A DNA stretch of 64,000 nucleotides from Candidatus Enterousia sp. (GTDB lineage: Bacteria > Pseudomonadota > Alphaproteobacteria > Rs-D84). The position numbers were made by a program, and so were the translations under genes. The DNA lies in assembly GCA_045635585.1 (NCBI GenBank), contig JAZTWA010000005.1, positions 13,101 through 77,100 of the forward strand, written 5' to 3'. Below are positions 7,755-53,739 of the stretch, in pieces. The notes below the pieces were generated by a model that worked only from the letters and a program-made list of their open reading frames with translations, searched no databases and was not told the origin of the DNA. The first letter of the stretch is position 1. Every line of letters starts with the position of its first letter.

Positions 7755-7768
7755 TAGTTAATAAAAAT

Positions 7769-7797
7769 AAAAAATCCCCCGTTTGGGGGATTTTTTT
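7769..7797. terminator. Intrinsic terminator, ATCCCC family
   Basis: aaaaaatccccc-gttt-gggggattttttt at the end of the 1061-aa gene. Confidence 0.85.
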
Positions 7798-10700
7798 AAT
7801 CCAATGTAATCGTGAAGACTCCGCCATATGTTCCGACGGGTTCGCCACCAACATAACATTCGATTTTGGAACCGACGTTATCCATAAATTCTTGGATGGC
7901 TTCTTGTTCGGCTTTATCCAATTCGGCGTCTTGAACAGCCTTGGTTATACCGTAACCCAATCCAGCACCGGCACCAGCACTGATAACACCGCCCAACAGT
8001 TTACCACCGTTTTTATCCCACCATTCGCCAGCCTGTGACTTTTCTTTTTCAATAGACTGGGCATTTTCATACATTTCTGTGGTCAAATCATCACATTGTG
8101 TTTTCATATCTTCAATTTGCTCAAAGAATGCGCTTGCAGTATTAGTATTAGTATTAGTATTATAGTTTGCACGTGCCGAATCATATGCGGATGTTGTTAC
8201 GACATCGAATTTTTCAAATATCTTTAACACACGATTTTCGTATTTTTGGTATCCGGCTTCTTTCGGCGTTGCGCTACTTTTAAATAAATTCGCAAAAGCA
8301 TCAACCATTTTATTACACTGATTTTTTTGTGCCTTTAATTCCGTATTTGACATAACGGCGGTGTTTTTCTTTTGATTCAAGCCACCCAATACGCCATCAC
8401 CTTTATTCTTGGAACCATTTTGGATATAATCACCCAAGAATACGCCACCGGTCCCCAGACCCAATGCACCAACCGCGGCCATCCAACCAGCAATCTTTGG
8501 CTGTGATGCTTCTTTGGTGTCGCGTGCGTCTTGACCCGCCTTTTCTGACAATTCTTTTAATTTATCAGATGGAATCCATGAACCACATACGAATGCGTCA
8601 CCAACCGCAAAGTATGTTGTCGCCCAATCTGCACCCGCATTGATTGCATCTTGGATATATTTATCATCGGAATGCAACGTTACACGTGCACGACAGAAGG
8701 AACCATACAAATCGTTACTGGCCACCATTTGATTTGCTTTTAATCCGTTTCCAGTATATCCATTTGGAACCTTGTTCGATTTCAATTTTACCCACATATA
8801 TGTTGAACCATTATCTTTGGCCCCCATGATGCCGCCATTGTTCATGGCAAAGCAACGATTTTGTTCTTGGGTTAATTTTGCATTATATTTCGCCTGGGCT
8901 TCGATTTCCAAATCGTAAATCAGGTCGCGGAACAATGTGCTGGCCGCCTGGGTTTCGGCATATGTCGTATATGAAATCATAACAGGTTTATCATATACTG
9001 CACCATTTGCATCAACATTGAAACATACCCCTTGGTCGCCAGACGCATTTGAACACAGCTGATTACCATATTCATCTGTTGCCTGAACTTCTTCGGTTGT
9101 GGCGGTCATCTTGGACGCACCACCCGCATCAATCCATCCACCACGTACCGTTGTGGAATTACCCCAACTGGACGCACCGACACTCTTGTCTTGGATTTTC
9201 ATTTTATTTGTTTCGATTGCCAAGTGTTCTTCACAAACAGATGCGTTTTTAACCGTATCAACACACAATCCCAATACGATTGTATAATCCAAAACACCAC
9301 CAACCTTGTTCATTGATTTATCAAACGATGCATCACCACTGTTGGTTAATGTTGAATACATATCTGTACGATTGCGATAGCAATTTACATAATCTGTACC
9401 ACACAATGACTTAACACAAGATGTCGCAACAGATTGACATTGTTTCTTCATCTGGGCAATTGCGGCATCACTATAATTTGTTGCCAATGATGCATTTAAT
9501 GATGCAATTACACCAATTGGGTCCGCTTCTGCGCCAGAATCATATTCTGGGAACAATGTATCAAATGCATCACCCATATTAAATGAATATGTGTATGTAC
9601 CCGTTGCATTTGGATTTTGGGCCGCATATTTACAATTCGCGTCGGTATTTACAATAGATGCACAACCCGTTCTGATTTCTTCACGTGTGTATTCGTTGTT
9701 AATTGTTTTGTCGCCATTACCAAAAACCTGGGAATAACATGCCGCACCAGAACCAGAACCACAAACACGCATTGCACATGACGATAATGTTTGCGCACAT
9801 TTTTCTTTGGCACGCGTATCAAACTTTTCAACCAATTCGGTTACACGCGCCTTCATGCCAGAATTGTAACGCGCACTGTATGCCGCATCAAAGATTTCTT
9901 CTTGGTTATCTTCGTCACGCAACTGGGACGCGGTTGGCATCATGCCATCGCCCAAGAATGTTGCATAACAATATTTGTTTGAACCAATTGTATCCAAACA
10001 TGAATTCTTGATATAGGCAGATATATTTGATTTATCGACCGTCGTCATCGTTTCCGCCAATTCTGTGACTGATGTACCGTTATTAATAGCATCAACCAAA
10101 CTGATTGTGCCAGCAGTTGCATTTTCATAACATTTGTATGGATTGGCCGTACATGCACCCAAGAAACATTGGTCAACAACCTTGTAACATGTGGATACCG
10201 CGTTTACCGCCGCCAATGCGCCACCTTCGGCAATTAATTCACCAACACGACTGGACGCGGTTGGATTTGCCGTCAAAGATGATGAACCCAACAATTCTGT
10301 TACACCTTCGCCCTGACAACGCGCCAAGGTAGAATCACAATAAACGCGCTGTTTCTTGAATTCAGCATTCGTTGTACATAATTCAAATTCAGAACCACAA
10401 ACACTGTCTTTTTTCAAGCATGATGTATAACGTTTTACACATGTCGATGTATCGTATTTGTTCGAAATCGCCGCCGCAGTAATCAATTGTTCCAGAACAC
10501 TGCCAGTCGCAGGATATTTATAACTGGCCACTTCGCCATAAGAATTTGTTGTCGCAACATCAGACAACGCCGCAACGTTAGATGTACCAAACAAACTTTT
10601 TATACCATCAGATGAACACTGGGCCAATGTGGACAAACATTGTGGCATTTTTGCGTGAAACAAGATACCAGTTGTACATTCTTCGAAATTTGGCCCACAG

Positions 10701-10981
10701 ATGTCCGCACCCTTGATACATTCGGAATATGCATCAATACAGTCAGTATTATTCAACAAAGACGATGTAGATGTCGTTGCCGCCGCAGCCACAGATGCAG
10801 TTGCAGTTCCGCCCTTGGCCCCAGTGACGTATGACGTCATAGTTGGCATACGACGAACCGCACCATTTGCAGACATCGCGGTCGCAGTGTTCATAACACT
10901 GGGGCGCGCAGTAACCGCATAGGCCGCAGGTATCACACTGAACAAAGCAATAAAACTTACCGTATTTTTGAGAAAAGACAT
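7796..10981 (-). CDS. Large exported cysteine-repeat protein (1061 aa), function unknown
   Basis: Signal peptide (...IPAAYA), 38 Cys by my count including five 6-Cys modules, and two Gly-rich hydrophobic segments near the C-terminus. SD GGAG upstream. Confidence 0.85.
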   Translation of the reverse strand: MSFLKNTVSFIALFSVIPAAYAVTARPSVMNTATAMSANGAVRRMPTMTSYVTGAKGGTATASVAAAATTSTSSLLNNTDCIDAYSECIKGADICGPNFEECTTGILFHAKMPQCLSTLAQCSSDGIKSLFGTSNVAALSDVATTNSYGEVASYKYPATGSVLEQLITAAAISNKYDTSTCVKRYTSCLKKDSVCGSEFELCTTNAEFKKQRVYCDSTLARCQGEGVTELLGSSSLTANPTASSRVGELIAEGGALAAVNAVSTCYKVVDQCFLGACTANPYKCYENATAGTISLVDAINNGTSVTELAETMTTVDKSNISAYIKNSCLDTIGSNKYCYATFLGDGMMPTASQLRDEDNQEEIFDAAYSARYNSGMKARVTELVEKFDTRAKEKCAQTLSSCAMRVCGSGSGAACYSQVFGNGDKTINNEYTREEIRTGCASIVNTDANCKYAAQNPNATGTYTYSFNMGDAFDTLFPEYDSGAEADPIGVIASLNASLATNYSDAAIAQMKKQCQSVATSCVKSLCGTDYVNCYRNRTDMYSTLTNSGDASFDKSMNKVGGVLDYTIVLGLCVDTVKNASVCEEHLAIETNKMKIQDKSVGASSWGNSTTVRGGWIDAGGASKMTATTEEVQATDEYGNQLCSNASGDQGVCFNVDANGAVYDKPVMISYTTYAETQAASTLFRDLIYDLEIEAQAKYNAKLTQEQNRCFAMNNGGIMGAKDNGSTYMWVKLKSNKVPNGYTGNGLKANQMVASNDLYGSFCRARVTLHSDDKYIQDAINAGADWATTYFAVGDAFVCGSWIPSDKLKELSEKAGQDARDTKEASQPKIAGWMAAVGALGLGTGGVFLGDYIQNGSKNKGDGVLGGLNQKKNTAVMSNTELKAQKNQCNKMVDAFANLFKSSATPKEAGYQKYENRVLKIFEKFDVVTTSAYDSARANYNTNTNTNTASAFFEQIEDMKTQCDDLTTEMYENAQSIEKEKSQAGEWWDKNGGKLLGGVISAGAGAGLGYGITKAVQDAELDKAEQEAIQEFMDNVGSKIECYVGGEPVGTYGGVFTITLD
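8139..8162. repeat. In-frame hexanucleotide tandem repeat (GTATTA)x4 encoding (NT)n
   Basis: Seen directly; translates as ...YNTNTNTNTAS... Confidence 0.9.
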
Positions 10982-11068
10982 CCCCTGACTCCATTTTTTA
11001 TTACTTTATTCTATCATATTTTCAGGGGATTGAAAAGTGAAAAAATATACTTTTCGCAGTTTTATACG

Positions 11069-12038: not shown

Positions 12039-12500
12039 CTATTTATAATCTTGCCAATCTGGGCCAACAGTACAATCAGACAAATCAATCTTTAATTCGC
12101 GACCAGAATCAGATACCGGACATGTCAATAATCCCGTTGTTGTTGCCTGGTCTGCGTCACGCGTTGCATTACGATACGCAAAATGTATTTCACGCGGCGC
12201 CGCAACACACGCAATTCGCAAATGTTCATGATTTTGACCATTTGGACCAATCCAAACGCGAACACCATCACCCAAACCATAACATGGAAAGCCATCCAAA
12301 TAATACAAAACCAGACCACGACCAACCAAGCGCGCATCTGGGATAAACGTTCCGCGATATTCAGATAAATTTAATCCTGTTACAGCCTGCCAATCTGTGC
12401 TGGTGGAAAAAATACTAATCCTTGGGGCGGGCGCAGATGAATCTGCAGCATTCGCAACAGACGTTATCAAGAACAAAAACAATGCAATTATTTTTTTCAT
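12039..12500 (-). CDS. Exported hypothetical protein (153 aa, 4 Cys)
   Basis: Classic signal peptide MKKIIALFLFLITSVANA. Four-base overlap with the upstream gene. Confidence 0.75.
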   Translation of the reverse strand: MKKIIALFLFLITSVANAADSSAPAPRISIFSTSTDWQAVTGLNLSEYRGTFIPDARLVGRGLVLYYLDGFPCYGLGDGVRVWIGPNGQNHEHLRIACVAAPREIHFAYRNATRDADQATTTGLLTCPVSDSGRELKIDLSDCTVGPDWQDYK

Positions 12501-13021
12501 TTATCCCCCTGTGGCACATCTAAATCAGCCAACTTTGCAACAATCTTGGTTACACCTTTGGGCAACGGCGCCAAAACATGACTGAAATCCACACTAGCCC
12601 CAGCATCAAGTAGCGTCGCAGACGGCATAAACTTTTGACGCGCCAAAATGTTATTTCTATCGTCCAACGAAACAATTATTAAATCAGGAACGCCATATAT
12701 ATCCGATGAAATATTTGAAATCGTACCAGACACAATATAACGAACCGCCCCCGTATCATCAGTTGTCGTTTCAACCCCAGAAACAGACGCAACCAATGGT
12801 CCCACAGGGCGATGTGAAGCCTGATGATGCGTAATAACCGCAATCGCAAAAACAACCGCAGACAACAACGCACAAACAGACGCAAAAAACATCAACCATG
12901 TATTCTTGCGGGGACGTGCAGGAACACGCCATACATGACCACAAACCGCACACTTAACAGGACATGTTGGCATAGAAGACAAAGCATATTCTGTTTTACA
13001 AAAATCACATTTCGTTTTCAT
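12497..13021 (-). CDS. Zinc-ribbon / TM / DUF3426 protein (ZitP-like)
   Basis: CDFC...CAVCGHVW zinc ribbon, one TM helix, and a C-terminal Ig-like domain (VSGTISN...VPDLIIVSLD). Confidence 0.8.
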   Translation of the reverse strand: MKTKCDFCKTEYALSSMPTCPVKCAVCGHVWRVPARPRKNTWLMFFASVCALLSAVVFAIAVITHHQASHRPVGPLVASVSGVETTTDDTGAVRYIVSGTISNISSDIYGVPDLIIVSLDDRNNILARQKFMPSATLLDAGASVDFSHVLAPLPKGVTKIVAKLADLDVPQGDK

Positions 13022-13041
13022 ATTTTTATATATACCACAAA

Positions 13042-14358
13042 TTATTCTAAATTCAACTGGCGATATTTGGCACGAACACGTGTCTGAATTTCGGATATCG
13101 CATTCATATAATCTGCAACTGTCGCATTCTTGTTTGCAGAAACAGCCGCAAAAATACGACCAGATTCTGTCGCAGAATCACCATAATGATATGTCGCCAA
13201 TGACGCCATACGATTTAACTCAACAAAAGATGCGTCTGCAAAATTCGCCACCTTGTTTGACAAGTCCCAATAATAATCCGATTGCTGTGAATCCGCAATT
13301 TTCTTTGATACAGCCAGACGTGGCGTCATGGACCCCGTAAAACCAACGGTTACAAACATTGCACTGATACGACCCGCAGTCATGTCCAGCGACTGATTTA
13401 TCTTTAGAAAAGAAAAATTATCTTCGGTACTAATCGACAAACCGCCCAGAGTCAAATTTGATACCCACAAATTCTGTGCGGTTACCGATGAAAACTTGCC
13501 CAACTCGGACAATAATAAACCACGCGACACTTCCATGGACTTTGCATCCGACGACATCATACCAGAAACCGTTGCTGATGCAACTTTGAATGCATTATCA
13601 ATAGTTGTGCGATTTTGAAAAATCAAATCATTTGTCGCAATCTGTAATGCTTTTAGCCCTTCGGTAAATTCGGCAAATTCTGCATTCACAAATGCCGAAT
13701 TCACAATATCATGCCCACCAAGATTTAATGCAGACATCATTTTTGCATCATCTGCATTCCCAGAAGGCACACGCCATAAATACAGTGAACTATCGCGATT
13801 TACATTCGTCGTTTCAACAATTGCATTTTTTACATCAATCCCCAAATCAACACTGTCTGTATGCCAAACACCAAAGGTACCGTACGCATGTTTATCTTCG
13901 ACAAAGCCCATCGTACCACCAGACAAATTTACAATTTCACGTGTACGTAATGGCGATATATCATCAGATACGCGTATAACCACACCCTGTAATGTTGAAT
14001 GCCCTGCGGCATCACTGGACTTTAAAATACGCAACTGGTACAAATCTGCATCTGATTCCAATATCGCATCCGGAATTCCATATTCAACCAACTGAGCCAA
14101 CTTTACGCGGGTAATATTTTTACCAACCGTCTTTAATAAATCTTCACGATGCGCAACAATGTATCGTTCCAGCGCAGATTGAATAATAGACATTTGATTT
14201 GTTATGGCGATATTTTGTGCACGTGTAACCGACCCTTGTTGTAAACGAAATGCAAACGGTATAACAATCGCCGCCAATGCAACACACAACAGCAATTCAA
14301 CCAGCATGTTTCCACGCATTTCATTTTTTCGCCCAAATAGTTTTATATATTTTTTCAT
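13042..14358 (-). CDS. PilV/Shufflon_N-like type IVb minor pilin, paralogue 1
   Basis: Prepilin site RG|NMLVE followed by a hydrophobic helix; GGTMGFV...YGTFGVW; YLWR...MMSALNLGGHDIVN block. Confidence 0.7.
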   Translation of the reverse strand: MKKYIKLFGRKNEMRGNMLVELLLCVALAAIVIPFAFRLQQGSVTRAQNIAITNQMSIIQSALERYIVAHREDLLKTVGKNITRVKLAQLVEYGIPDAILESDADLYQLRILKSSDAAGHSTLQGVVIRVSDDISPLRTREIVNLSGGTMGFVEDKHAYGTFGVWHTDSVDLGIDVKNAIVETTNVNRDSSLYLWRVPSGNADDAKMMSALNLGGHDIVNSAFVNAEFAEFTEGLKALQIATNDLIFQNRTTIDNAFKVASATVSGMMSSDAKSMEVSRGLLLSELGKFSSVTAQNLWVSNLTLGGLSISTEDNFSFLKINQSLDMTAGRISAMFVTVGFTGSMTPRLAVSKKIADSQQSDYYWDLSNKVANFADASFVELNRMASLATYHYGDSATESGRIFAAVSANKNATVADYMNAISEIQTRVRAKYRQLNLE

Positions 14359-14359
14359 C

Positions 14360-15577
14360 TTAGTTTATCGTAAATATTTGTGGTTGTATTGATCCCTGCC
14401 ATCCGTCACGCATCAAAGAATCAAATTCTGATACGACTGGTGCATCCGGTAATTTAGCGCGCGACAAATTAAATTCCGAAAATGCAGGCGGTCGATTTGA
14501 TGGGAATGTCCATGCACCTAATTTTAACGGAGGTGTTGTTGACATCAATAATTCACCAGATACCGTCAGACCAAAATTATTATAAAACATCATTTCATCA
14601 GCAGAAACAAATGGCGTTACAACCGAACTGGCACTGATACCGGTAAAACCACTGATTGTACGAGTAGAATCTGATTTCAAAACGAATTTGTTACCGATAT
14701 TTATATCGCCCAATATCTTGATTCTGTCCGCAATTATATGTCCAGTTGTTGTAAAACCACGACCATTTATATTGTCTGCAAATACATTACGAAATCCCGA
14801 CACGTCACCAGATACACGAATATTACCAATCGACACATCTTGACCGTCCATATTCGCACCAGATTTAAAATAAACACTGCGCGCAGAAAGATTTGGCGCT
14901 TCGACAAAGGTTACATTTGCATTGCGGGCCCGCAAGGACTTTCCCGACAATGTCGCAACATTATACACATTATGATATGCCATATTCAAATCACGCTCCA
15001 TGACATTCAAATTATCTTCACCAGATGTGGCGCGATGCAAAAAACGCGATGTGTCTTGCCCAGAAAATTCACGCGATATGCGATATATCAAATCCCCCGT
15101 TACAAAATCAGGCGCCATAACCGCCCATGTTGAACCATACGCAACACCATCTGCACCAACAACCGCAGCATCACCACCAATATGTCGCGCAATTTTGTTT
15201 GTACGTAATTCATTGTCGTTCGACGAAAATGCCAAATATACATCTGTTACCATTGCGCCATTTATTGCATATTTATCAATAAAACCCGCCACCGCATCGG
15301 GTGATATAGACGACAATTCTTCGGGGGTTAATTGTATCTGAACAATATCAGGCCATTTATCTTGATTCATACGAACAAAATTCAACACACCATCACGCGA
15401 AGAAATTATCTTGCGCGAAACAGCAATATCATGAATTGTATGATTTGTTTGGGCAATTTGATTATAAACAAACGGCGTTGCCATACCAACAATCGCCAGT
15501 GCCAGTAACACTTCGACAACACTGGCACCCGACATAGAATTTGAAAAAAATTTGTTATTTAACACAGTCACTGCCAC
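14360..15577 (-). CDS. PilV/Shufflon_N-like type IVb minor pilin, paralogue 2
   Basis: SG|ASVVE prepilin site; GGDAAVV...AYGSTW; FLHR...LNVMERDLNMAYHNVYN block. Confidence 0.7.
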   Translation of the reverse strand: MAVTVLNNKFFSNSMSGASVVEVLLALAIVGMATPFVYNQIAQTNHTIHDIAVSRKIISSRDGVLNFVRMNQDKWPDIVQIQLTPEELSSISPDAVAGFIDKYAINGAMVTDVYLAFSSNDNELRTNKIARHIGGDAAVVGADGVAYGSTWAVMAPDFVTGDLIYRISREFSGQDTSRFLHRATSGEDNLNVMERDLNMAYHNVYNVATLSGKSLRARNANVTFVEAPNLSARSVYFKSGANMDGQDVSIGNIRVSGDVSGFRNVFADNINGRGFTTTGHIIADRIKILGDINIGNKFVLKSDSTRTISGFTGISASSVVTPFVSADEMMFYNNFGLTVSGELLMSTTPPLKLGAWTFPSNRPPAFSEFNLSRAKLPDAPVVSEFDSLMRDGWQGSIQPQIFTIN

Positions 15578-16913
15578 CCGCCATTAAACATTTTTTTATA
15601 TCGATTCTTTTTTCTAGATTTTGCCAAAACAAATACTGACAAATCAAATATTGGGACAAAGATTGTTTGTTATAAACACCTTCGAATTCTTCAATTATTT
15701 TTTTACATGCAATTGTTTTTTTATCATCAGACTTTGCATCTTCAATAATACTAAAAACATCATTATTAATTCCTGCAACTAGGGCATCTGGCAACATTGA
15801 TGTTCCCGCCGGACGAATATCCAAAATAACCGCACCAGACGCACCCTGATTTAATGCAATTGATGTCTGGTCACGAAGCGTTATATTTGACGTATAAATA
15901 ACACCCGTTTCAATCCCAGATTTAGTACTATAATCCAATGTCTCTTCATCAATATAAACATCTTGACCACGTGTCGCACTTAGATACGAAGATATATCCA
16001 AACGTTCAACACTGAATGATACATTGTCCGACATCAGATTACCATGAACCGTCCATGACGCCCCACCCGTAAATGACGTACGACCCGCAGTCATTGACAT
16101 ATCATAGATAGACACATCGTTTGCTTCGATATTACCTGTATCACCAAACATAGACACCGTTCGAAAATTTGCGCTATCCACAAACAACGTTCCGCGATTT
16201 AACGACAAGGCCGCTTCACCAGTCGCACTTTGAAACACCGCCTTTTCCGCAGAAATATCTTCGATTTTATTTCTGACCTTGCGCCCAGATTCAAGCCCTG
16301 TTATAGACAAGGTTGTAAACTGGGCCGTATCAAATTCGCCACGAACACCAAATAAATTCCCAACATTATTCAAGACAAACCTTCCCATATCCAAGTCTGT
16401 CAAAAAGCCACTATTATCAATATCAGGCTCATCACGTCGAACAATATCCGAATACACATCTTGTAATTCAATACCAATATTTACCCCAACATCAGTATAC
16501 GTTGCATAAAAACCAATTCGACGTGCCAATTCAGCACGTTCAACTTCACTTAAATCGCCACCCAACAATTCCAAATACGCAGACACAGCCATGGGCGTTT
16601 TATGTATAACTAATGATATATTTTGCCCCAATGCCGTTCGCGGCACATACCCCAACGGCAAACCATATGGTTCCAACAAGTCAACAAAATCATCCCCAGA
16701 AACAACGGTTGTGTTATACATTAAATTTTTTGCGTTTTCGCGTATAAAAATTCGCGCGGCCGTTTGGGCTGTTTCAACCTGATGAGTGGTCGCATACATC
16801 CTAGAATCTGTATTACGGCGCGCCATTTGACGCGACAGAAACGGGATAAAAGCAAACATCAATCCCATTGCCAACAATGCTTGTAATAAAAAACTGCCAC
16901 GTTGCTGATGCAA
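15555..16913 (-). CDS. PilV-like type IVb minor pilin, paralogue 3 (E5 replaced by Q)
   Basis: RG|SFLLQ prepilin site and IVRR...FLTDLDMGRFVLNN block. Start refined to TTG 16913 (SD AGGGGG upstream), giving leader MHQQRG. Confidence 0.65.
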   Translation of the reverse strand: MHQQRGSFLLQALLAMGLMFAFIPFLSRQMARRNTDSRMYATTHQVETAQTAARIFIRENAKNLMYNTTVVSGDDFVDLLEPYGLPLGYVPRTALGQNISLVIHKTPMAVSAYLELLGGDLSEVERAELARRIGFYATYTDVGVNIGIELQDVYSDIVRRDEPDIDNSGFLTDLDMGRFVLNNVGNLFGVRGEFDTAQFTTLSITGLESGRKVRNKIEDISAEKAVFQSATGEAALSLNRGTLFVDSANFRTVSMFGDTGNIEANDVSIYDMSMTAGRTSFTGGASWTVHGNLMSDNVSFSVERLDISSYLSATRGQDVYIDEETLDYSTKSGIETGVIYTSNITLRDQTSIALNQGASGAVILDIRPAGTSMLPDALVAGINNDVFSIIEDAKSDDKKTIACKKIIEEFEGVYNKQSLSQYLICQYLFWQNLEKRIDIKKCLMAGGSDCVK

Positions 16914-16938
16914 AAAAATCCCCCTACTTGACATCATC

Positions 16939-16967
16939 AGCATAGCAATACAAAAAAAATATTGCAA
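16939..16967 (-). promoter_or_regulatory. Putative sigma70 promoter of the pilV-like operon
   Basis: TTGCAA-17-TATGCT, with a T8 run inside the spacer. Confidence 0.55.
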
Positions 16968-31303: not shown

Positions 31304-33511
31304 TTATTTTTTCGTACCGCCTTTTTGTGCACTGTCTTTTGTCCATGAACGGATGTTATAATTATCAGCACCGTCATCTGATTGGCCCCAATTTCCTTTG
31401 GACGCGCTCATATCTATTCCCATGGCTTGGCGCAGACAGTATTCACGCAACTGTGCAGAATCTTTGGTTATATTATCACCATATTCTGGGGTAAAATTCT
31501 CCAAACTTTCTACATATGCACCGTTCAAGATTTCATTTAACGTTACAACGTTACGGCATGTATTTGTTGTATAATCTCGGCTGTTTGTGCAAGAAGCAGC
31601 GTCCGCTTTGTCGATAACCGCATTAAACCCGGCACCAAATGGGATACAAATCATTTCTTCGTAACAGTGTGGAATATTTGAAATCTGGGCACAATATGTT
31701 TTTATGCGCGCAGTTGGCCAATCTTCATCTTCCTGATCTTCATAGCAATCCAGAATTTCTGTTAAACATTCATTAAGGTTTGTTCCCGCCGTCTGGGCCG
31801 CATTCAATATTGATTCTGCTTCGGCCTGGGCAAAATCAAGACGCTTTTGCTGTAATGCCTGTTGTGCCGCAACCTTTTGATAACCGATGTTTTGTGCGGT
31901 TGCACGCAACTGTTCACCATACGCATCACAGTCCGCATTCGCATCCAATGCATATTTCTGCATAATGCTGCGACGTGCATCGGCAACCGGTGTACGCAAA
32001 TTAGAATATGGGTCACCAGATGTTGAATTATAACCAAAGCATGCCGCAGAATTTGATGCCGAATAACTGCTGTTTGCTTTGACAAAATCTAATTCATACG
32101 AACCGGTATTATTTACAGTTATATGACTGTTGTAATTAAATGGACATTGGGACGCACCATTGCTGCACTTGGTGCCAGATGGTGGGGTTCCGCATGCCTC
32201 ATAAATACCGTTAAAGCATGAATCCAAAACACGTGCACAAACATTGTTATGCGCATATTCAAACAATTCATAGCCCCACGTTTCCGCCAATGAATCTTTG
32301 GTTTCTTCCGCACTGTTCAATGCGCCACCGATACCAGACATTCCGTTAACAACACTGGACAAGTTATCAAAGGCAGATGACAAACTGTTGTTATCGTCGG
32401 TCAGGATTGTAATCGTGCTTTCTTTTGCCTTGGCCCATGATTGTAAAGACGCCAAAATATCCGAACCATTACCATCTATATCATCAATATCAAACCCGAA
32501 ATCATTGCCACCTTTATCATCTGTACAATATTTTGGCTTAGTACAGGATGTAACCTCACCGCTGCCATCTTCTTTATAAATACCATGATTCGAACACCAT
32601 TCAATTGCTTCTTCTGAAGACGTCCCATATTCATTAGTCACATCTTGCCATGAAACACAATTCAAGACCTTTTCGGCGTCGGTTAATTTGAACGCTTCGG
32701 ATATATCTTTACCATTGCTGGCCACCAATAATGCCAATTCACCAGAAACCTTAATCAATTCTTCGTTGGCGGTTTCTAATGCGGCCTGCGCCTCTGCAAA
32801 GGCGCGAACACGACCCGCACATGCACAACGACGTTGGGCCGCATTACGTGCCGTACAAATTTCGTCCATACATGTATAATATGATTCCATACAATTACTG
32901 AACGCTTCTGATGAAATCAGGCCAGTTGTTGAATCAATAATATTTGAATAATTACCTGTGTACAGTTTGCTGGTCAAATATGAATATGTTGATGATGTTG
33001 TTCCCGACGCCTTGGCACCGCGTATCGCACTGCCCTGTAATGAAATGCGCGCGTTATTTGCCGCATCAGTTGTTGCAGTACGCGCACGCACCGTACGTCT
33101 TTGATTTGCCTGGGCGCGATTTGTTGCCGCCGTCTGACGCGATACAACATTACGCTTTGTCGTGGCATTGGCACGTGATGTCGCCGCACCCGTTGCACGA
33201 TTTGTTGCCGCACGCGAAACAACCGTACGTGATGCCGCACCAGTTATTGCCCCCCTATCCGCAACAGCAGTACGCGCAACCGCACGACGTGATGTTGTGG
33301 CGGTGTTACGTGGACTAACCCGGCCAGATGTGCGCGCATTTGCACGACCAGATTGTGGCCCAACAATCATATTTGAATCCATCGGCGCAATTGGGTCCGC
33401 GAATACAGAACGTATCGACAAAAATGTCGAACATACAAAAAATGCCCCCGCCAGCAAAAACACCGTACCCATGGCATTTTTCAAGGAATCTGTTATTTTT
33501 TTATCAGCCAT
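31304..33511 (-). CDS. Exported cysteine-rich protein (735 aa) with R/A/T-rich N-terminal arm
   Basis: Signal/anchor helix, about 100 aa of low-complexity basic sequence, and 24 Cys by my count including C-x6-C-x4-C. SD AGGAG. Confidence 0.85.
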   Translation of the reverse strand: MADKKITDSLKNAMGTVFLLAGAFFVCSTFLSIRSVFADPIAPMDSNMIVGPQSGRANARTSGRVSPRNTATTSRRAVARTAVADRGAITGAASRTVVSRAATNRATGAATSRANATTKRNVVSRQTAATNRAQANQRRTVRARTATTDAANNARISLQGSAIRGAKASGTTSSTYSYLTSKLYTGNYSNIIDSTTGLISSEAFSNCMESYYTCMDEICTARNAAQRRCACAGRVRAFAEAQAALETANEELIKVSGELALLVASNGKDISEAFKLTDAEKVLNCVSWQDVTNEYGTSSEEAIEWCSNHGIYKEDGSGEVTSCTKPKYCTDDKGGNDFGFDIDDIDGNGSDILASLQSWAKAKESTITILTDDNNSLSSAFDNLSSVVNGMSGIGGALNSAEETKDSLAETWGYELFEYAHNNVCARVLDSCFNGIYEACGTPPSGTKCSNGASQCPFNYNSHITVNNTGSYELDFVKANSSYSASNSAACFGYNSTSGDPYSNLRTPVADARRSIMQKYALDANADCDAYGEQLRATAQNIGYQKVAAQQALQQKRLDFAQAEAESILNAAQTAGTNLNECLTEILDCYEDQEDEDWPTARIKTYCAQISNIPHCYEEMICIPFGAGFNAVIDKADAASCTNSRDYTTNTCRNVVTLNEILNGAYVESLENFTPEYGDNITKDSAQLREYCLRQAMGIDMSASKGNWGQSDDGADNYNIRSWTKDSAQKGGTKK

Positions 33512-43186: not shown

Positions 43187-45439
43187 ATGGCAACTAAATT
43201 CAACATTTTATCAGCATCTGGCAAAGGAAAAGGTTTAAATATCTTTCGGTCCAGTTCATATAAAGAACACGAACAGACACCACTGGCGCGTGAATTTTGG
43301 TCAATACGTTGGGCAATATTTATATGGCTATTGGCGGCATTTATGTTTGCAATGGCTTTTCCAATTGAACACATATGGCGATATGGCTGGTCACCTGCAA
43401 CGAAACACTGGATAATTATTTATCTACAAAACTTTTTTATGTCGGGTGGCTTGTCCGCATTGGCAGAAATTCCATCGTGGATTGCGCGTTGCGTTATGCG
43501 ACCAGATATTCCATGCATAACACCACTGCTTCCGATAATCGGTTATTACCTGTTGGCTGATTCAACAATGACTGATGAATTTAACCCACACAGCAAGGAT
43601 AAATTTGATCCAAAAACATCGCGCGTCGCGACAATCAGTGATATCAAAAAAATGTCCCAAGACCATAAAAACAAAGAAGGATTGTTAAATGGCTTTATGA
43701 TGGTGTTGGGTTTTGTCAAAGACAAAGGCAAACCAAAACCATTAAAAATGGACGAATGTATGTCTGCACTGTTACTGGCACCCGCAGGTACCGGTAAAAC
43801 CAATGGTGTCGTTATACCAACAATTTTGGGGTGCGATACTGTTTCCATGATTATCAATGACCCAAAGCCTGAATTGCGTTATTCAACATCGGGATATCGT
43901 GCAACTGTTGGCCCCGTCTTTATATTAAACTGGGGTGCACGCGACGAACCAGAAAACGGGATTTATTATCCGGCATGGAATCCATTGTCCCCAGAAAATA
44001 TGCCTGATAATGCAGAAGAAAAAAGTACATATATTCAGGTTATTGTTAATACCGTTATTGAAGAAAACGCCAAGGATCCACACTGGTCTAATACGGCACG
44101 TGCGGCACTGACCGGATTTATAAACTTTATCGTATCCAAGGTTGAACGTGCCAAAGCAAATGACTATTTTTATTCAAGATTAATGAAGGGTACCTTTGAT
44201 TCCCAAGACGCAACCGTATTGATGGATTATTATATGACAATGTCATCCGACCCAAATGCATATGCAGCAATGTCATTGTTACAACAAGGCAAATTAACCA
44301 AAGAAAATTATGTTCATGTCGGGACGTGGGCGGGATTGCCACCCGAATGGCATGGGACCGAAGCATCAATCCCAATGTTCTTGGCATGGTATGTCGAAGG
44401 TCAATTAAAAATCGGTCAAGAACTGGAAGAACGCAAGCGTCAGGGCGACCAGATGGTTATGATGGCCGATCCAATGAAAGACTTTTTAACCGAAGCTGTT
44501 AATGAAGCGCAACTGTACGCATATGATAGTGATGCAATATCTTCGTTAATCAATTTGGCAAATACACCGGACAAGGAACGCGGGTCTGTTATTTCAACGA
44601 TGAATGCGGGATTAAATATTTTCCGACACCCAGCTGTAAACAAACATACACGACATTCTGATTTACATTTTACCGATGTACGCGGTATGGTTGACCCAAC
44701 AGACGGTCAGGTTAAGCCTGTTACAATTTATTTATCTATGAATGTTGCAGATGCGCCTGCATTTAAACCAATTACCAGCATGTTTATCGAACTGTTATCG
44801 AACTTTTTGATTGCAAATAAACCAGAGCACATAAATCATGGTAAAAAAATGGGGCCATTCCCTGCCCTGTTTGTATTGGACGAAATGCCAACCATGAATA
44901 AACTGGATGCAATTATCCAAGGTCCGGCCGTTGGACGTGGACAAATGGTATCATATCTGATTGTCGGTCAGGATATCAGCCAAATCGCCGATAAATATGG
45001 CGACAAAGCAACAGAAACAATTGTTGCAAATACGGCGGCAAAAATCATCTTGCGCGTTAATGACCCTGATACCGCCGCACGCTTTTCCAGCATGATGGGC
45101 AAGAAAAAAGTTAAAAAGAAAGAACGCGCAGTCGATGGCAAAGAATACGATGTCGATAAAGAAGAAGACTTGTTCAGCCCAATGGATTTGATGACACTGG
45201 CCAAAGGAAAACAGTTGGTATTGTTCCAAGGATTTTATAATCGACCAATCGAAGCAGATGGCGAATGGTATTTCCTGCGTCAATCACCGGTGCAAATCGA
45301 AATGGCGGCCAAGGTTGATTTGGGTGAAACAACACCAATCCCAGAATACATGATTCCAAAACACCATCGTGCATTACGATATGCGGGAAATCCACGTGTA
45401 TATAACCCCAAAACAAAAGAAGTAAAAGAACTAGTATAA
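43187..45439 (+). CDS. virD4: Type IV secretion coupling protein, VirD4/TraG family
   Basis: N-terminal TM helices, Walker A APAGTGKT, NDPKPEL, WNPL, Walker B FVLDEMP, and QDISQI..KYG. Confidence 0.9.
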   Translation: MATKFNILSASGKGKGLNIFRSSSYKEHEQTPLAREFWSIRWAIFIWLLAAFMFAMAFPIEHIWRYGWSPATKHWIIIYLQNFFMSGGLSALAEIPSWIARCVMRPDIPCITPLLPIIGYYLLADSTMTDEFNPHSKDKFDPKTSRVATISDIKKMSQDHKNKEGLLNGFMMVLGFVKDKGKPKPLKMDECMSALLLAPAGTGKTNGVVIPTILGCDTVSMIINDPKPELRYSTSGYRATVGPVFILNWGARDEPENGIYYPAWNPLSPENMPDNAEEKSTYIQVIVNTVIEENAKDPHWSNTARAALTGFINFIVSKVERAKANDYFYSRLMKGTFDSQDATVLMDYYMTMSSDPNAYAAMSLLQQGKLTKENYVHVGTWAGLPPEWHGTEASIPMFLAWYVEGQLKIGQELEERKRQGDQMVMMADPMKDFLTEAVNEAQLYAYDSDAISSLINLANTPDKERGSVISTMNAGLNIFRHPAVNKHTRHSDLHFTDVRGMVDPTDGQVKPVTIYLSMNVADAPAFKPITSMFIELLSNFLIANKPEHINHGKKMGPFPALFVLDEMPTMNKLDAIIQGPAVGRGQMVSYLIVGQDISQIADKYGDKATETIVANTAAKIILRVNDPDTAARFSSMMGKKKVKKKERAVDGKEYDVDKEEDLFSPMDLMTLAKGKQLVLFQGFYNRPIEADGEWYFLRQSPVQIEMAAKVDLGETTPIPEYMIPKHHRALRYAGNPRVYNPKTKEVKELV

Positions 45440-46053: not shown

Positions 46054-46839
46054 CTATTTTTCGGTACTTTTCAAGATATTTTGCACAGATTGTAATGCCG
46101 TCCATACATCACGCTTGGCCGCGGGTTTTAATATCAAATAATTTGGATGATATATCGGCACCAATGTTATATTTTCTGAATATTCAAATGAATTGCCATG
46201 CGATTTCGTCAGGTTTATTTCCATTAATTCTGATGCAGGTAACGTCCCCAATGTCAAAATTACACGTGGCGCAATTAATTCCACCACACGATTAACAAAT
46301 GGACGTGCCAAATCCAATTCCAAACGTGATGGCGCCCGCCCGCCGGGTGTACGCCAGAATATCATCGGAACAATAGATACATTTGCACGTGATAAACCAA
46401 TTGCCGCCAGCATCTTGTCCATCAATTCGCCGGATGCGCCTGATAAAATCGTACCTGTTGCGTCATCTTCACTGCTGGGGATATCTGTTATGATTAATAA
46501 ACTCCCCTGCCCCACATGTGGCAAAACAGTATTTGTTGCACATGCGCGTAACGGATGATTAAATTCGCCAATCATTCGACAAAGCGCAGACATGTCATTT
46601 GGACGCGACGCCATCGCACAAACCGTTTCAACCGATATCGACTGAGACGGCGCAATTGGCGGCACAACAGATGACGTCATACGACCAATCTCGGAAATAA
46701 GATTCCCCGATTCGCGACGCATATCTGATGCGGGCGCCATAGTTTCTGTTTTGGGCGGCGTTGGAACCATAAAAGAATTATCCGTTATTTCCCAACGTAC
46801 ACCCGCAGCAACCAAATCGCGCAACAATTTATCTGACAT
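46054..46839 (-). CDS. Uracil-DNA glycosylase family 4-like protein (diverged motif A)
   Basis: WRTPGGRAP, PRVILTLG and PIYHPNYL motifs. GE(A/G)PG is replaced by TDIPS. Start refined to ATG 46839. Confidence 0.8.
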   Translation of the reverse strand: MSDKLLRDLVAAGVRWEITDNSFMVPTPPKTETMAPASDMRRESGNLISEIGRMTSSVVPPIAPSQSISVETVCAMASRPNDMSALCRMIGEFNHPLRACATNTVLPHVGQGSLLIITDIPSSEDDATGTILSGASGELMDKMLAAIGLSRANVSIVPMIFWRTPGGRAPSRLELDLARPFVNRVVELIAPRVILTLGTLPASELMEINLTKSHGNSFEYSENITLVPIYHPNYLILKPAAKRDVWTALQSVQNILKSTEK

Positions 46840-46916
46840 CTGTGTTTTCCCTTGATTTTTCAATATTTCTATTGTACACTACACCAGGAGTAACAGAAAC
46901 TCAAGGGAGTATTTTC

Positions 46917-52432: not shown

Positions 52433-53095
52433 TTACCATTCTATTGGATTAAATCCACGTGATACAAGATATTCATTCGCGCGCGAAAAATGATGATTTC
52501 CAAAAAAACCACGATACGCAGACAAAGGCGATGGATGTGCACTTTTCAAAATCAAGTTTTTTTCCGGATTAACAAATGCGGCTTTTTTCTGGGCATAGCC
52601 ACCCCATAACATATACACGACATTATCGCGCGTAGATACCGTACGAATAACCGCGTTTGTAAATTCTTCCCAACCACGTCCCGCATGTGATGCGGCCGCA
52701 TGTGCCCGCACTGTCAATGTCGAATTTAATAACAAAACACCCTGATTTGCCCAGTGTGTTAAATCGCCTTTTGTTACAGATTTTCGACCCAAATCCGCTT
52801 CAATTTCTTTGTATATATTTTGCAAACTTGGGGGGCAGGGGGTTGGCGGTAAGACAGAAAAACACAATCCATGCGCCTGATTTGGTTCATGATATGGATC
52901 TTGACCGATTATAACAACACGAACTTTATCCAAAGGACATAGGTTAAATGCATTAAATATATTTTTTGGGGCAGGGTATATTGCATGCCCAGACATATAT
53001 TCAGAGCGTACAAAATCCGTCAATTTAATAAAATAATCTTTATCAAATTCTGACCCAAGAGCATTCTTCCAAGACTGTTCAATTTTAACATTCAT
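52433..53095 (-). CDS. ung: Uracil-DNA glycosylase family 1
   Basis: GQDPYH, AHGLCFSV, PPSLQNI, GVLLLN and HPSPLS. Start refined to ATG 53095 (ATGA overlap). Confidence 0.97.
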   Translation of the reverse strand: MNVKIEQSWKNALGSEFDKDYFIKLTDFVRSEYMSGHAIYPAPKNIFNAFNLCPLDKVRVVIIGQDPYHEPNQAHGLCFSVLPPTPCPPSLQNIYKEIEADLGRKSVTKGDLTHWANQGVLLLNSTLTVRAHAAASHAGRGWEEFTNAVIRTVSTRDNVVYMLWGGYAQKKAAFVNPEKNLILKSAHPSPLSAYRGFFGNHHFSRANEYLVSRGFNPIEW

Positions 53096-53739
53096 AACTT
53101 TATTAACCCCTGTTGACACGATTTCCATAAAACAACATCAATATATCCACGCGGTAAATTTGTTTGTCTTACCAAATGTGCAAACATTTTATCACACGCA
53201 TCTTGGATTTCGGGACAAAGTTTACCATTATTTATCTTGTCATACAAATCCAAGCACCCAGAAAAAACACATCCCAGACGCTGAATCCAAATGTCATATT
53301 TAACAACATCTTCCCCCAAATTACGCGCCAGATGATTTGCTGTTATTTTACCAATATGCGGTAAAGATTGCAGATATTTTATTTTTTCATCAAGCAATTT
53401 TAATTCGTAATACGAATTACATAATATCTGACGTGAATGCCAAATTTTACATATCGCGTTTATTTTATTTTTATTATTAAATATCTTTATCAAGAAATCA
53501 CTATCCGCACCATTAAGCATAAGCGCATTTATAATTTTTGTGTGTATTTTTTTTGCCGTTTGTTGTGAAAAACCACCCGCCAAAATCACATATATACAAT
53601 GCGATGCAAATTCATCTGGTGAATATATTTTGTTTGATTGCAAATTTTCCAAAATTTCATCAAAACTTTGCGCATCACTGTCCATGCCACGTGCACGTAA
53701 ATCAGAATCCAAATCAAAAAACCATTTTGCAGAAAACAT
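53092..53739 (-). CDS. HhH-GPD superfamily DNA glycosylase-like protein
   Basis: YVILAGGFSQQTA, HhH motif LQSLPHIGKITA, conserved Asp in VVKYDIWI, and IDVVLWK. Confidence 0.65.
   Translation of the reverse strand: MFSAKWFFDLDSDLRARGMDSDAQSFDEILENLQSNKIYSPDEFASHCIYVILAGGFSQQTAKKIHTKIINALMLNGADSDFLIKIFNNKNKINAICKIWHSRQILCNSYYELKLLDEKIKYLQSLPHIGKITANHLARNLGEDVVKYDIWIQRLGCVFSGCLDLYDKINNGKLCPEIQDACDKMFAHLVRQTNLPRGYIDVVLWKSCQQGLIKL

Follow-up and report, generated by a model that had tools for sequence, protein, structure and literature searches.

A putatively exported, cysteine-rich protein of Candidatus Enterousia with a hypervariable head between two glycine zippers

The gene and its domain layout

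We analysed a stretch of 64,000 nucleotides (nt) from Candidatus Enterousia sp. (Alphaproteobacteria; Rs-D84), referred to here as the window, which covers positions 13,101 to 77,100 of contig JAZTWA010000005.1 in assembly GCA_045635585.1 and which, like all sequences analysed, comes from a metagenome-assembled genome (MAG). On its minus strand lies the gene P0001 (7796..10981, stop codon at 7796-7798), which encodes a predicted exported, Cys-rich protein of 1061 aa. A preliminary description made from the letters of the window had given an open reading frame (ORF) of this length with 38 Cys; the ORF list and translation confirm that the ORF is intact between 7796 and 10981, and a recount of the Cys gave the same number. 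The most informative feature of P0001 is not its Cys repeat. It is the C-terminal succession of a glycine zipper, a hypervariable and apparently recombining head, a second glycine zipper and a conserved tail.

The N-terminus reads MSFLKNTVSFIALFSVIPAAYA followed by VT and corresponds to a standard signal peptidase I (SPase-I) signal peptide (residues 1-22, 10916..10981; this and all other features of the gene lie on the minus strand), read from the sequence, conserved in the homologues, with cleavage between AYA and VT and without a lipobox. A linker rich in Ser, Thr and Ala follows (residues 23-78, 10748..10915), which is disordered in the AlphaFold2 (AF2) model with a predicted local distance difference test (pLDDT) score of 26-34. 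The linker is poorly conserved except for R26, R44 and P46 (TARPSV ... RRMPTMT), which at least 90% of homologues retain, even at identities as low as 25%. The body begins with two type-A modules, namely M1 (residues 79-165, 10487..10747), a helix-loop-helix with a small beta hairpin and six Cys at 81-122, and its duplicate M2 (residues 166-255, 10217..10486), with six Cys at 181-222, which is the copy that all homologues have. Three type-B modules come next: M3 (residues 256-385, 9827..10216; Cys 265, 272, 277, 284, 328 and 338), M4 (residues 386-505, 9467..9826; Cys 395, 402, 407, 415, 440 and 450) and M5 (residues 506-600, 9182..9466; Cys 515, 522, 527, 534, 573 and 583), the last being the most conserved with 83% mean identity. 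They are followed by a conserved beta/alpha domain (residues 601-828, 8498..9181) with a hairpin at Cys 643/653 and single Cys at 710, 763 and 799. The C-terminal part comprises the glycine zipper Z1 (IAGWMAAVGALGLGTGGVFLG; residues 829-855, 8417..8497), the hypervariable helical head (residues 856-990, 8012..8416; Cys 889 and 963), the glycine zipper Z2 (LLGGVISAGAGAGLGYGIT; residues 991-1012, 7946..8011) and the conserved tail (residues 1013-1061, 7799..7945), a helix with a three-stranded beta unit and the invariant Cys 1042.

Counting of the successive Cys gaps (6,6,6,12,6; 58; 6,6,6,12,6; 42; 6,4,6,43,9; 56; 6,4,7,24,9; 64; 6,4,6,38,9; 59; 9; then singles) reproduced exactly the spacings, the two six-Cys modules, the three further modules and the shared strings of the preliminary description. 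Residues 81-122 and 181-222 both follow C-x6-C-x6-C-x6-C-x12-C-x6-C at an offset of exactly 100 residues and have CG..FE.CT and C.STLA.C in common, residues 265-338, 395-450 and 515-583 follow C-x6-C-x4-C-x6/7-C ... C-x9-C, and beyond the modules there remain the extra C-x9-C pair 643/653 and the single Cys 710, 763, 799, 889, 963 and 1042. Cys-Cys gaps of exactly 6 occur 13 times, whereas 20,000 shuffles of the protein averaged 1.07 such gaps and never exceeded 7. The alignment of M1 with M2 (blastp E=2e-17; hhalign 99.6%) indicates a true duplication. Among the type-B modules the hhalign values were 89% over 71 columns for M3-M5, 82% for M4-M5 and only 16% for M3-M4, while the first helix of the type-A module resembled that of M5 at 80% over 22 columns; the Cys-rich composition may inflate the weaker of these module scores. 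M3 and M4 are thus probably each homologous to M5 and linked to one another only through it. As M1 is missing in about 28% of 68 sequences, these being distant homologues with only one type-A module, the type-A duplication is clade-specific and the module a building block rather than part of a fixed five-fold repeat.

Cysteine parity, zipper polarity and the variable head

None of the 38 Cys varies among 38 homologues of 59-95% identity, and about 30 are still invariant at 20-30% identity. We counted the parity of the Cys in 101 full-length homologues. Their mature proteins contain 34 to 48 Cys, an even number in 96%. The head, zippers included, has 0, 2, 4, 6, 8 or 10 Cys and is even in 98%, the body has 29-41 and is odd in 97%, the tail has exactly one in 96%, and body and tail taken together are even in 96%. 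Since the number varies while the parity is kept, Cys appear to be gained and lost in pairs, which argues for intramolecular disulfides and not for metal sites or intermolecular cross-links. By the same reasoning, the even count in the head suggests that it folds in an oxidising compartment, and the odd body together with the single tail Cys implies that C1042 would pair with one of C710, C763 and C799, so that the zipper-head-zipper stretch would be a loop covalently closed at its base. P0001 is therefore very probably stapled by intramolecular disulfides, the bond between body and tail included. The map that we infer would contain 19 disulfides: 16 are accounted for by the modules together with the 643/653 hairpin, two by residues 710, 763, 799 and 1042, and one by the head (889-963).

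Every homologue has two hydrophobic stretches of about 20 residues rich in Gly, Ala and Ser, often with a Trp before them. We estimated their apparent free energy of insertion (dGapp) as a position-independent sum of the biological scale of Hessa et al. 2005; on this measure Z1 and Z2 of P0001 reach +3.0 and +4.4 kcal/mol, and 68 homologues have means of +4.7 and +4.1 kcal/mol, with none below +1 and values up to +8. The inner-membrane helices of Kef, LspA, YidC, LptF/G and a Zn-ribbon protein encoded in the same window gave -0.7 to -4.0. Z1 and Z2 hence seem too polar to act as stop-transfer helices of the Sec pathway. Besides, the loop between them is without a positive-inside bias, K+R being about equal to D+E. 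Polar zippers, the missing bias and the Cys parity of the head together argue against a hairpin in the inner membrane with a cytoplasmic head, and for complete export with later membrane association or oligomerisation.

The head stands out by its divergence. Mean identity to the query is 72-83% in M1-M5, 66% in the middle domain, 53% in Z1, 19% in the head, 34% in Z2 and 52% in the tail. Even in a homologue of 94% overall identity (P0002), with modules at 96-100%, the head is only 77% identical and holds 31 of the 59 differences. The ratio of non-synonymous to synonymous substitution rates (dN/dS, omega) was obtained by the Nei-Gojobori method on three independent close pairs. Omega was 0.10 in the body and 0.88 in the head for the window against L086 (Fisher p 2e-8), and 0.09 and 1.63, respectively, for L087 against L088 (p 1e-11). 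In the third pair (L089/L001; p 2e-12) the body has a dS of 0.086 and a dN of 0.002, and the head a dS of 0.79 and a dN of 0.37; as dS in the head far exceeds that of the body and identity resumes exactly at the zippers, the head of this pair is a replaced cassette. Over 4950 pairs, the similarity of heads and that of bodies are only loosely tied and at times discordant: P0058 and P0074 share 96.7% of the body and 16.9% of the head, with head lengths of 146 and 301 aa, while body and head agree at 86% and 65% in P0074/P0085 and at 85% and 58% in P0046/P0058. Contigs from four independent gut metagenomes that are 95-98% identical over the body likewise drop out or carry replaced sequence within 8012-8416. 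The head thus appears to diversify by point substitution as well as by recombinational exchange of cassettes. It ranges from 33 to 291 aa in length and is never missing in the sampled homologues, and AF2 predicts a helical bundle for it. Because it is never lost in shrinking genomes and is predicted to be such a bundle, it looks functional rather than a neutral spacer. The hypervariability of the head, the dGapp comparison and the argument from Cys parity, with its body-tail disulfide and oxidising head compartment, are new findings of this analysis.

Family, fold and genomic setting

A word-indexed search returned 831 matches, all of them named hypothetical and all from alphaproteobacterial MAGs, and when HMMER was run exhaustively against 1.84 billion cluster representatives, no more than 231 clusters reached E≤1e-3. 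When one genome per GTDB species was scanned, the family was encoded in 232. The carriers are gut bacteria of cattle, yak, sheep, deer, buffalo, chicken, rabbit and humans, named as Candidatus Enterousia spp. or as uncultured Alphaproteobacteria or 'Rickettsiales'. No two of the 80 loci listed share an assembly, and one carrier is a closed chromosome of 958,618 bp. A distant branch of the family comes from MAGs labelled Alphaproteobacteria or Rickettsiales bacterium, and the window's own sequence is present in bovine-gut and faecal metagenomes. As far as these searches reach, the family appears to be restricted to uncultured gut Alphaproteobacteria with genomes below 1 Mb (Ca. Enterousia, order Rs-D84). 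The genomes of Enterousia and Rs-D84 measure about 0.75-1.0 Mb, lack respiration, flagella and most biosynthesis, and belong to bacteria that are predicted to subsist on partner cells; the authors also drew attention to numerous hypothetical membrane proteins with a possible part in cell-cell interaction (PMC12306168). A homologue of 58% identity is encoded on a 102-kb contig (L023, CAVGNU010000002.1) filed under 'Bacteroides fragilis isolate ... cleanbin'; since all other carriers are Alphaproteobacteria or Enterousia MAGs, this bin is very probably mislabelled or contaminated.

A Pfam scan of P0001 at E up to 1 gave only a sub-threshold match to CBD_PlyG, and NCBIfam and PADLOC returned nothing significant; the matches to CBD_PlyG and to JetC were rejected as low-complexity or coiled-coil noise. 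When all PDB sequences were searched with a profile built from 38 homologues, the best matches reached only E=0.04 and were to the poly-Q of TBP and to XaxA/YaxA over a coiled coil and hydrophobic segment. From 38 close homologues AF2 gave only a poor model (pLDDT 58), with no match in Foldseek; it was superseded by a run with 125 diverse homologues, which reached a mean pLDDT of 78.7 and a predicted template modelling (pTM) score of 0.54, with 518 residues at 90 or above. In this model the body is helical, the head consists of four helices and the tail is of beta structure, with pLDDT mostly above 90 for residues 78-828, 70-87 for the head helices and 88-94 for the tail. Foldseek found no match for it either (best E 0.99 in PDB and 0.14 in BFVD). 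The P0001 family matches no known family or fold. That no named domain is present, as the preliminary description had held, is therefore upheld by Pfam, NCBIfam, PADLOC, the PDB-sequence profile and Foldseek, and we encountered neither a match to a characterised family nor a sign of cytoplasmic localisation. Its picture of a disulfide-stapled helical protein outside the cytoplasm is likewise supported, export by the signal peptide, helicity by AF2 and, very probably, stapling by the Cys parity; the role of adhesin, coat or effector that it had suggested is not established. In the literature library searched, no paper combined Rs-D84 with cysteine, and broader searches gave nothing relevant.

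The gene has expression signals of its own. Two overlapping sigma-70-like promoter candidates (11008..11041, minus strand), recognised by consensus match only, lie in the 87-bp gap after rluD, a GGAG Shine-Dalgarno sequence precedes the ATG by about 10 nt, and an intrinsic terminator (AAAAAATCCCCC-AAAC-GGGGGATTTTTT; 7769..7796, minus strand), made of a 12-bp G+C stem and a T run, overlaps the stop codon. The terminator hairpin (window 7764-7799) also draws many unrelated contig ends in RNA and DNA runs, with loose ends at 7764-7801 and a depth of up to 85 in X28, which suggests that this sequence recurs at many loci in the communities or genomes. The gene neighbours are housekeeping or envelope genes, namely rluD, a DD-carboxypeptidase gene with a SPOR domain, recR, rsmA, dnaX, lptD, lptFG, skp and yidC. 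Upstream of rluD (window 12039-16967, minus strand) we observed three tandem pilin-like genes (438, 405 and 470 aa), which have no match in Pfam, together with genes for a Zn-ribbon/transmembrane (TM) protein of 174 aa and an exported protein of 153 aa. The string dnaX / three pilin-like / Zn-ribbon / 153-aa gene / rluD / P0001 is kept in relatives of 58-94% identity (L001-L003 and L086). In homologues of 25-30% identity (L004 and L005) the gene instead follows ftsQ-ftsA or ybeY-lnt, and the pilin-like string is not adjacent. The pilin-like / Zn-ribbon / rluD string was therefore rejected as an operon or functional partner, the synteny being lost in distant homologues and P0001 having its own promoter-like site and terminator. 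As the gene has such a site and a strong terminator and is without a conserved neighbour in distant homologues, it is best read as a stand-alone gene.

A second Cys-rich protein, P0122 (window 31304-33511, minus strand; 735 aa), is exported, has 24 Cys and shows, downstream of its signal anchor, a long low-complexity region rich in Arg, Ser, Thr and Ala. The same lineage contains 1198 homologues of P0122, for which Pfam gave no match. Both proteins have the short motif C-x6-C-x4-C (CMESYYTCMDEIC), that is C-x3-hydrophobic-x2-C-[ML/F/V]-x3-C, and a ...C..AC..P..KC stretch. Membership of P0122 in the P0001 family was considered and rejected, as hhalign gave a probability of 0.4% (E=0.14) and aligned only the local C-x6-C-x4-C...P..KC. 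The N-terminal region of P0122 contains strings like xAR[TP][AS][VT], similar to those in the linker of P0001, and the conserved linker residues may be a tether or sorting motif that the two proteins share. Elsewhere in the window lie a gene for a VirD4/TraG-type coupling protein (43187-45439, plus strand; Pfam T4SS-DNA_transf, TraG-D_C and TrwB_AAD_bind), alone between rsmE and infC and with no other genes of a type IV secretion system (T4SS) seen in the 64 kb, and two separate genes of the uracil-DNA-glycosylase superfamily (46054-46863 and 52433-53128, both minus strand) within 7 kb of each other, in what is presumably a genome of less than 1 Mb.

A possible display scaffold and its known counterparts

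We propose, with a probability of roughly 45%, that P0001 is an exported, disulfide-locked envelope scaffold which displays a diversifying recognition head by means of its zipper pair. The protein would be exported by Sec to the envelope of a reduced-genome gut alphaproteobacterium, where the five Cys-stapled helical modules and the beta/alpha domain (residues 79-828) would form one rigid conserved unit with the tail (residues 1013-1061), locked by about 18 intramolecular disulfides of which one would tie the tail back to the body. Out of this unit would come a loop made of Z1, the helical head (about 135 aa, with a disulfide of its own to pin it) and Z2. Z1 and Z2 would come together, probably within an oligomer, as an antiparallel hairpin of helices that would span the outer membrane or associate with it. 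Exposed on the cell surface in this way, the head would serve to recognise, or attach to, a partner cell or host surface, and would itself be targeted by phages, antibodies or competitors. Location in the outer membrane, oligomerisation, ligand and function are inferred here along with the surface exposure of the head, and display is favoured because diversification is typical of parts exposed to other organisms (receptors, phages, antibodies). A bolder and rather doubtful version is that the P0001 family represents an undescribed mode of display on the surface of a diderm cell. Here a periplasmic scaffold locked by disulfides would extend alpha-helical glycine zippers across the outer membrane as an oligomerising hairpin, with the turn of the hairpin grown into a disulfide-pinned head that is exchangeable by recombination and would determine to which partner cell or host surface these obligately dependent gut bacteria attach.

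Enterousia and Rs-D84 are widespread in the guts of ruminants, birds and humans, and their means of acquiring metabolites or attaching to partners are not known (PMC12306168). With its 3.2 kb the gene accounts for about 0.35% of a genome of this size, and at least 232 species conserve it; the combination of a near-frozen scaffold and a recombining head makes P0001 one of the strongest candidates for an apparatus of contact or recognition in these bacteria. It also offers a fold without a match in PDB or BFVD and an unusual putative topology, in which a body-to-tail disulfide would close the zipper-head-zipper loop, and it raises the question of how about 19 disulfides could be made in a cell without a quinone-linked Dsb pathway.

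Several observations weigh against a displayed recognition head on a disulfide-locked scaffold. Both zippers are modelled by AF2 with pLDDT below 50, and the spanning of the outer membrane by alpha-helices is rare. The Pfam glycine-zipper families (PF05433, PF13488 and PF13441) gave no match at E up to 10 with the whole of P0001, with isolated Z1 or Z2, or with the two joined, so that the resemblance to SlyB/Pcp-type proteins would be functional only. The dN/dS of the head is near 1 in one pair, which fits an unconstrained linker too. RNA runs gave only a few contigs of 150-350 nt on P0001, as on its neighbours, and these show presence and are uninformative on level. With regard to the backing of the disulfides, no Dsb genes were found in the 64-kb window, to which the search was confined, and the lineage has no respiratory chain (PMC12306168).

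The alternative that survives best, although we consider it unlikely, is a structural lattice of the envelope, in which P0001 would brace the periplasm or outer membrane in the manner of the chlamydial Cys-rich outer-membrane complex and the head would be a tolerated variable spacer. The strong conservation of the body (dN/dS 0.03-0.10), the single gene per assembly among the 80 loci listed, its position among envelope and housekeeping genes and the second exported Cys-rich protein in the window, P0122, are all consistent with such a brace. The even Cys parity, however, points to bonds within rather than between molecules, and a head that is always kept at 33-291 aa despite strong genome reduction, with a predicted fold (pLDDT 70-87), paired Cys and cassette exchange, is unexpected for a mere spacer.

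Much less probable is an anchor in the inner membrane, with Z1 and Z2 as a TM hairpin and the head in the cytoplasm. Charged residues do flank the two hydrophobic segments, each about 20 residues long, and a Kyte-Doolittle scan flags residues 830-850, but the dGapp of the zippers is positive in every homologue and negative for the true TM helices of the window, the loop lacks the positive-inside bias, an even Cys count in 98% of the heads is unexpected in a reducing cytoplasm, and hypervariability with cassette exchange is atypical of a cytoplasmic loop. We regard as equally improbable that P0001 stabilises mating or cell pairs for a T4SS as TraN does, with the head as the specificity tip, which would be a special case of the displayed recognition head. 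TraN (PF06986) of F-like plasmids is an outer-membrane protein whose 22 conserved Cys are all predicted to form disulfides within the molecule; its core is conserved, whereas the choice of recipient porin depends on a variable 'tip', and variants can exchange their tips (PMC9246713). Moreover, the window encodes a VirD4 coupling protein. Yet P0001 has no Pfam match to TraN and is mostly helical where TraN is mostly beta, and neither here nor in relatives is its gene linked to T4SS genes.

A released effector or pore-former, which would enter a target membrane with its C-terminal helices and hydrophobic segments like the alpha-pore-forming toxins of XaxA/YaxA type, seems slightly less probable still. 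Residues 879-1030 give a weak profile match to XaxA/YaxA that places Z2 on the hydrophobic foot (E=0.04-0.24), and SmhA is among the insignificant Foldseek matches; significance is not reached, however, and the match reflects coiled-coil composition, the hydrophobic segments are 135 aa apart without a hairpin tip, no partner subunit or secretion gene lies nearby, and the disulfide-rich body of 750 aa has no counterpart in XaxA/YaxA. Least probable of all is metal binding or storage by heptad-spaced Cys acting as thiolate ligands that line helical bundles, as in Csp-type copper storage, for although C-x6-C puts Cys on one face of a helix and a lineage without a respiratory chain, with no Dsb gene in the window, would lack the usual re-oxidation by DsbB, the strict even parity at 34 to 48 Cys argues for pairing, Pfam gives no match to Csp/DUF326, His is nearly absent (3 of 1061 residues), and in the AF2 model the C-x9-C pairs span helix-helix junctions, with one pair closing a beta hairpin.

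Set beside known systems, an envelope scaffold with a displayed head shares single features with several of them. The XaxA/YaxA proteins likewise have long helices that end in a hydrophobic segment rich in Gly and Ala, but their alignment is weak and not significant (E=0.04), Foldseek gives E>1 and the architecture differs. In CHCH (twin CX9C) proteins and the Helicobacter Hcp/Sel1-like repeats, Cys pairs at helix-periodic spacing (i/i+7, i/i+10) staple antiparallel helices, as is proposed for P0001. Its modules, however, have no Pfam match to them, contain six Cys with a spacing of their own, are concatenated five times and belong to a bacterial exported protein. Chlamydial OmcB/OmcA are also Cys-rich exported envelope proteins of an obligately host- or partner-dependent bacterium with a reduced genome. 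They work through intermolecular cross-links, unlike P0001, for which parity argues for intramolecular bonds; they are without a hypervariable head, and no Pfam, PDB-sequence or Foldseek match joins them to it.

The glycine-zipper proteins with two TM segments (2TM), such as SlyB/Pcp and the 17-kDa antigen of Rickettsia (PF05433, PF13488 and PF13441), associate with the outer membrane as oligomers. They resemble P0001 in being exported by a diderm bacterium and in having helices of about 20 residues, rich in Gly, Ala and Ser and of the GxxxG type, that are too polar for inner-membrane integration. P0001 differs from them in that it has no lipobox, its two helices are 33-291 aa apart with a folded domain in place of a tight turn, and its body of about 750 aa is unrelated. 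As for TraN, the two proteins have no sequence match, and TraN is mainly beta-sheet and beta-sandwich, is plasmid-borne within the tra operon and lacks the glycine-zipper pair, whereas P0001 is mainly helical and is apparently a stand-alone chromosomal core gene beside rluD and the DD-carboxypeptidase gene, with other housekeeping neighbours in its relatives and not in a tra/T4SS operon. The analogy would thus be a functional one, between large exported envelope proteins in which many conserved Cys are predicted to form only intramolecular disulfides and a conserved core carries a variable, exchangeable tip, which in TraN sets cell-cell specificity.

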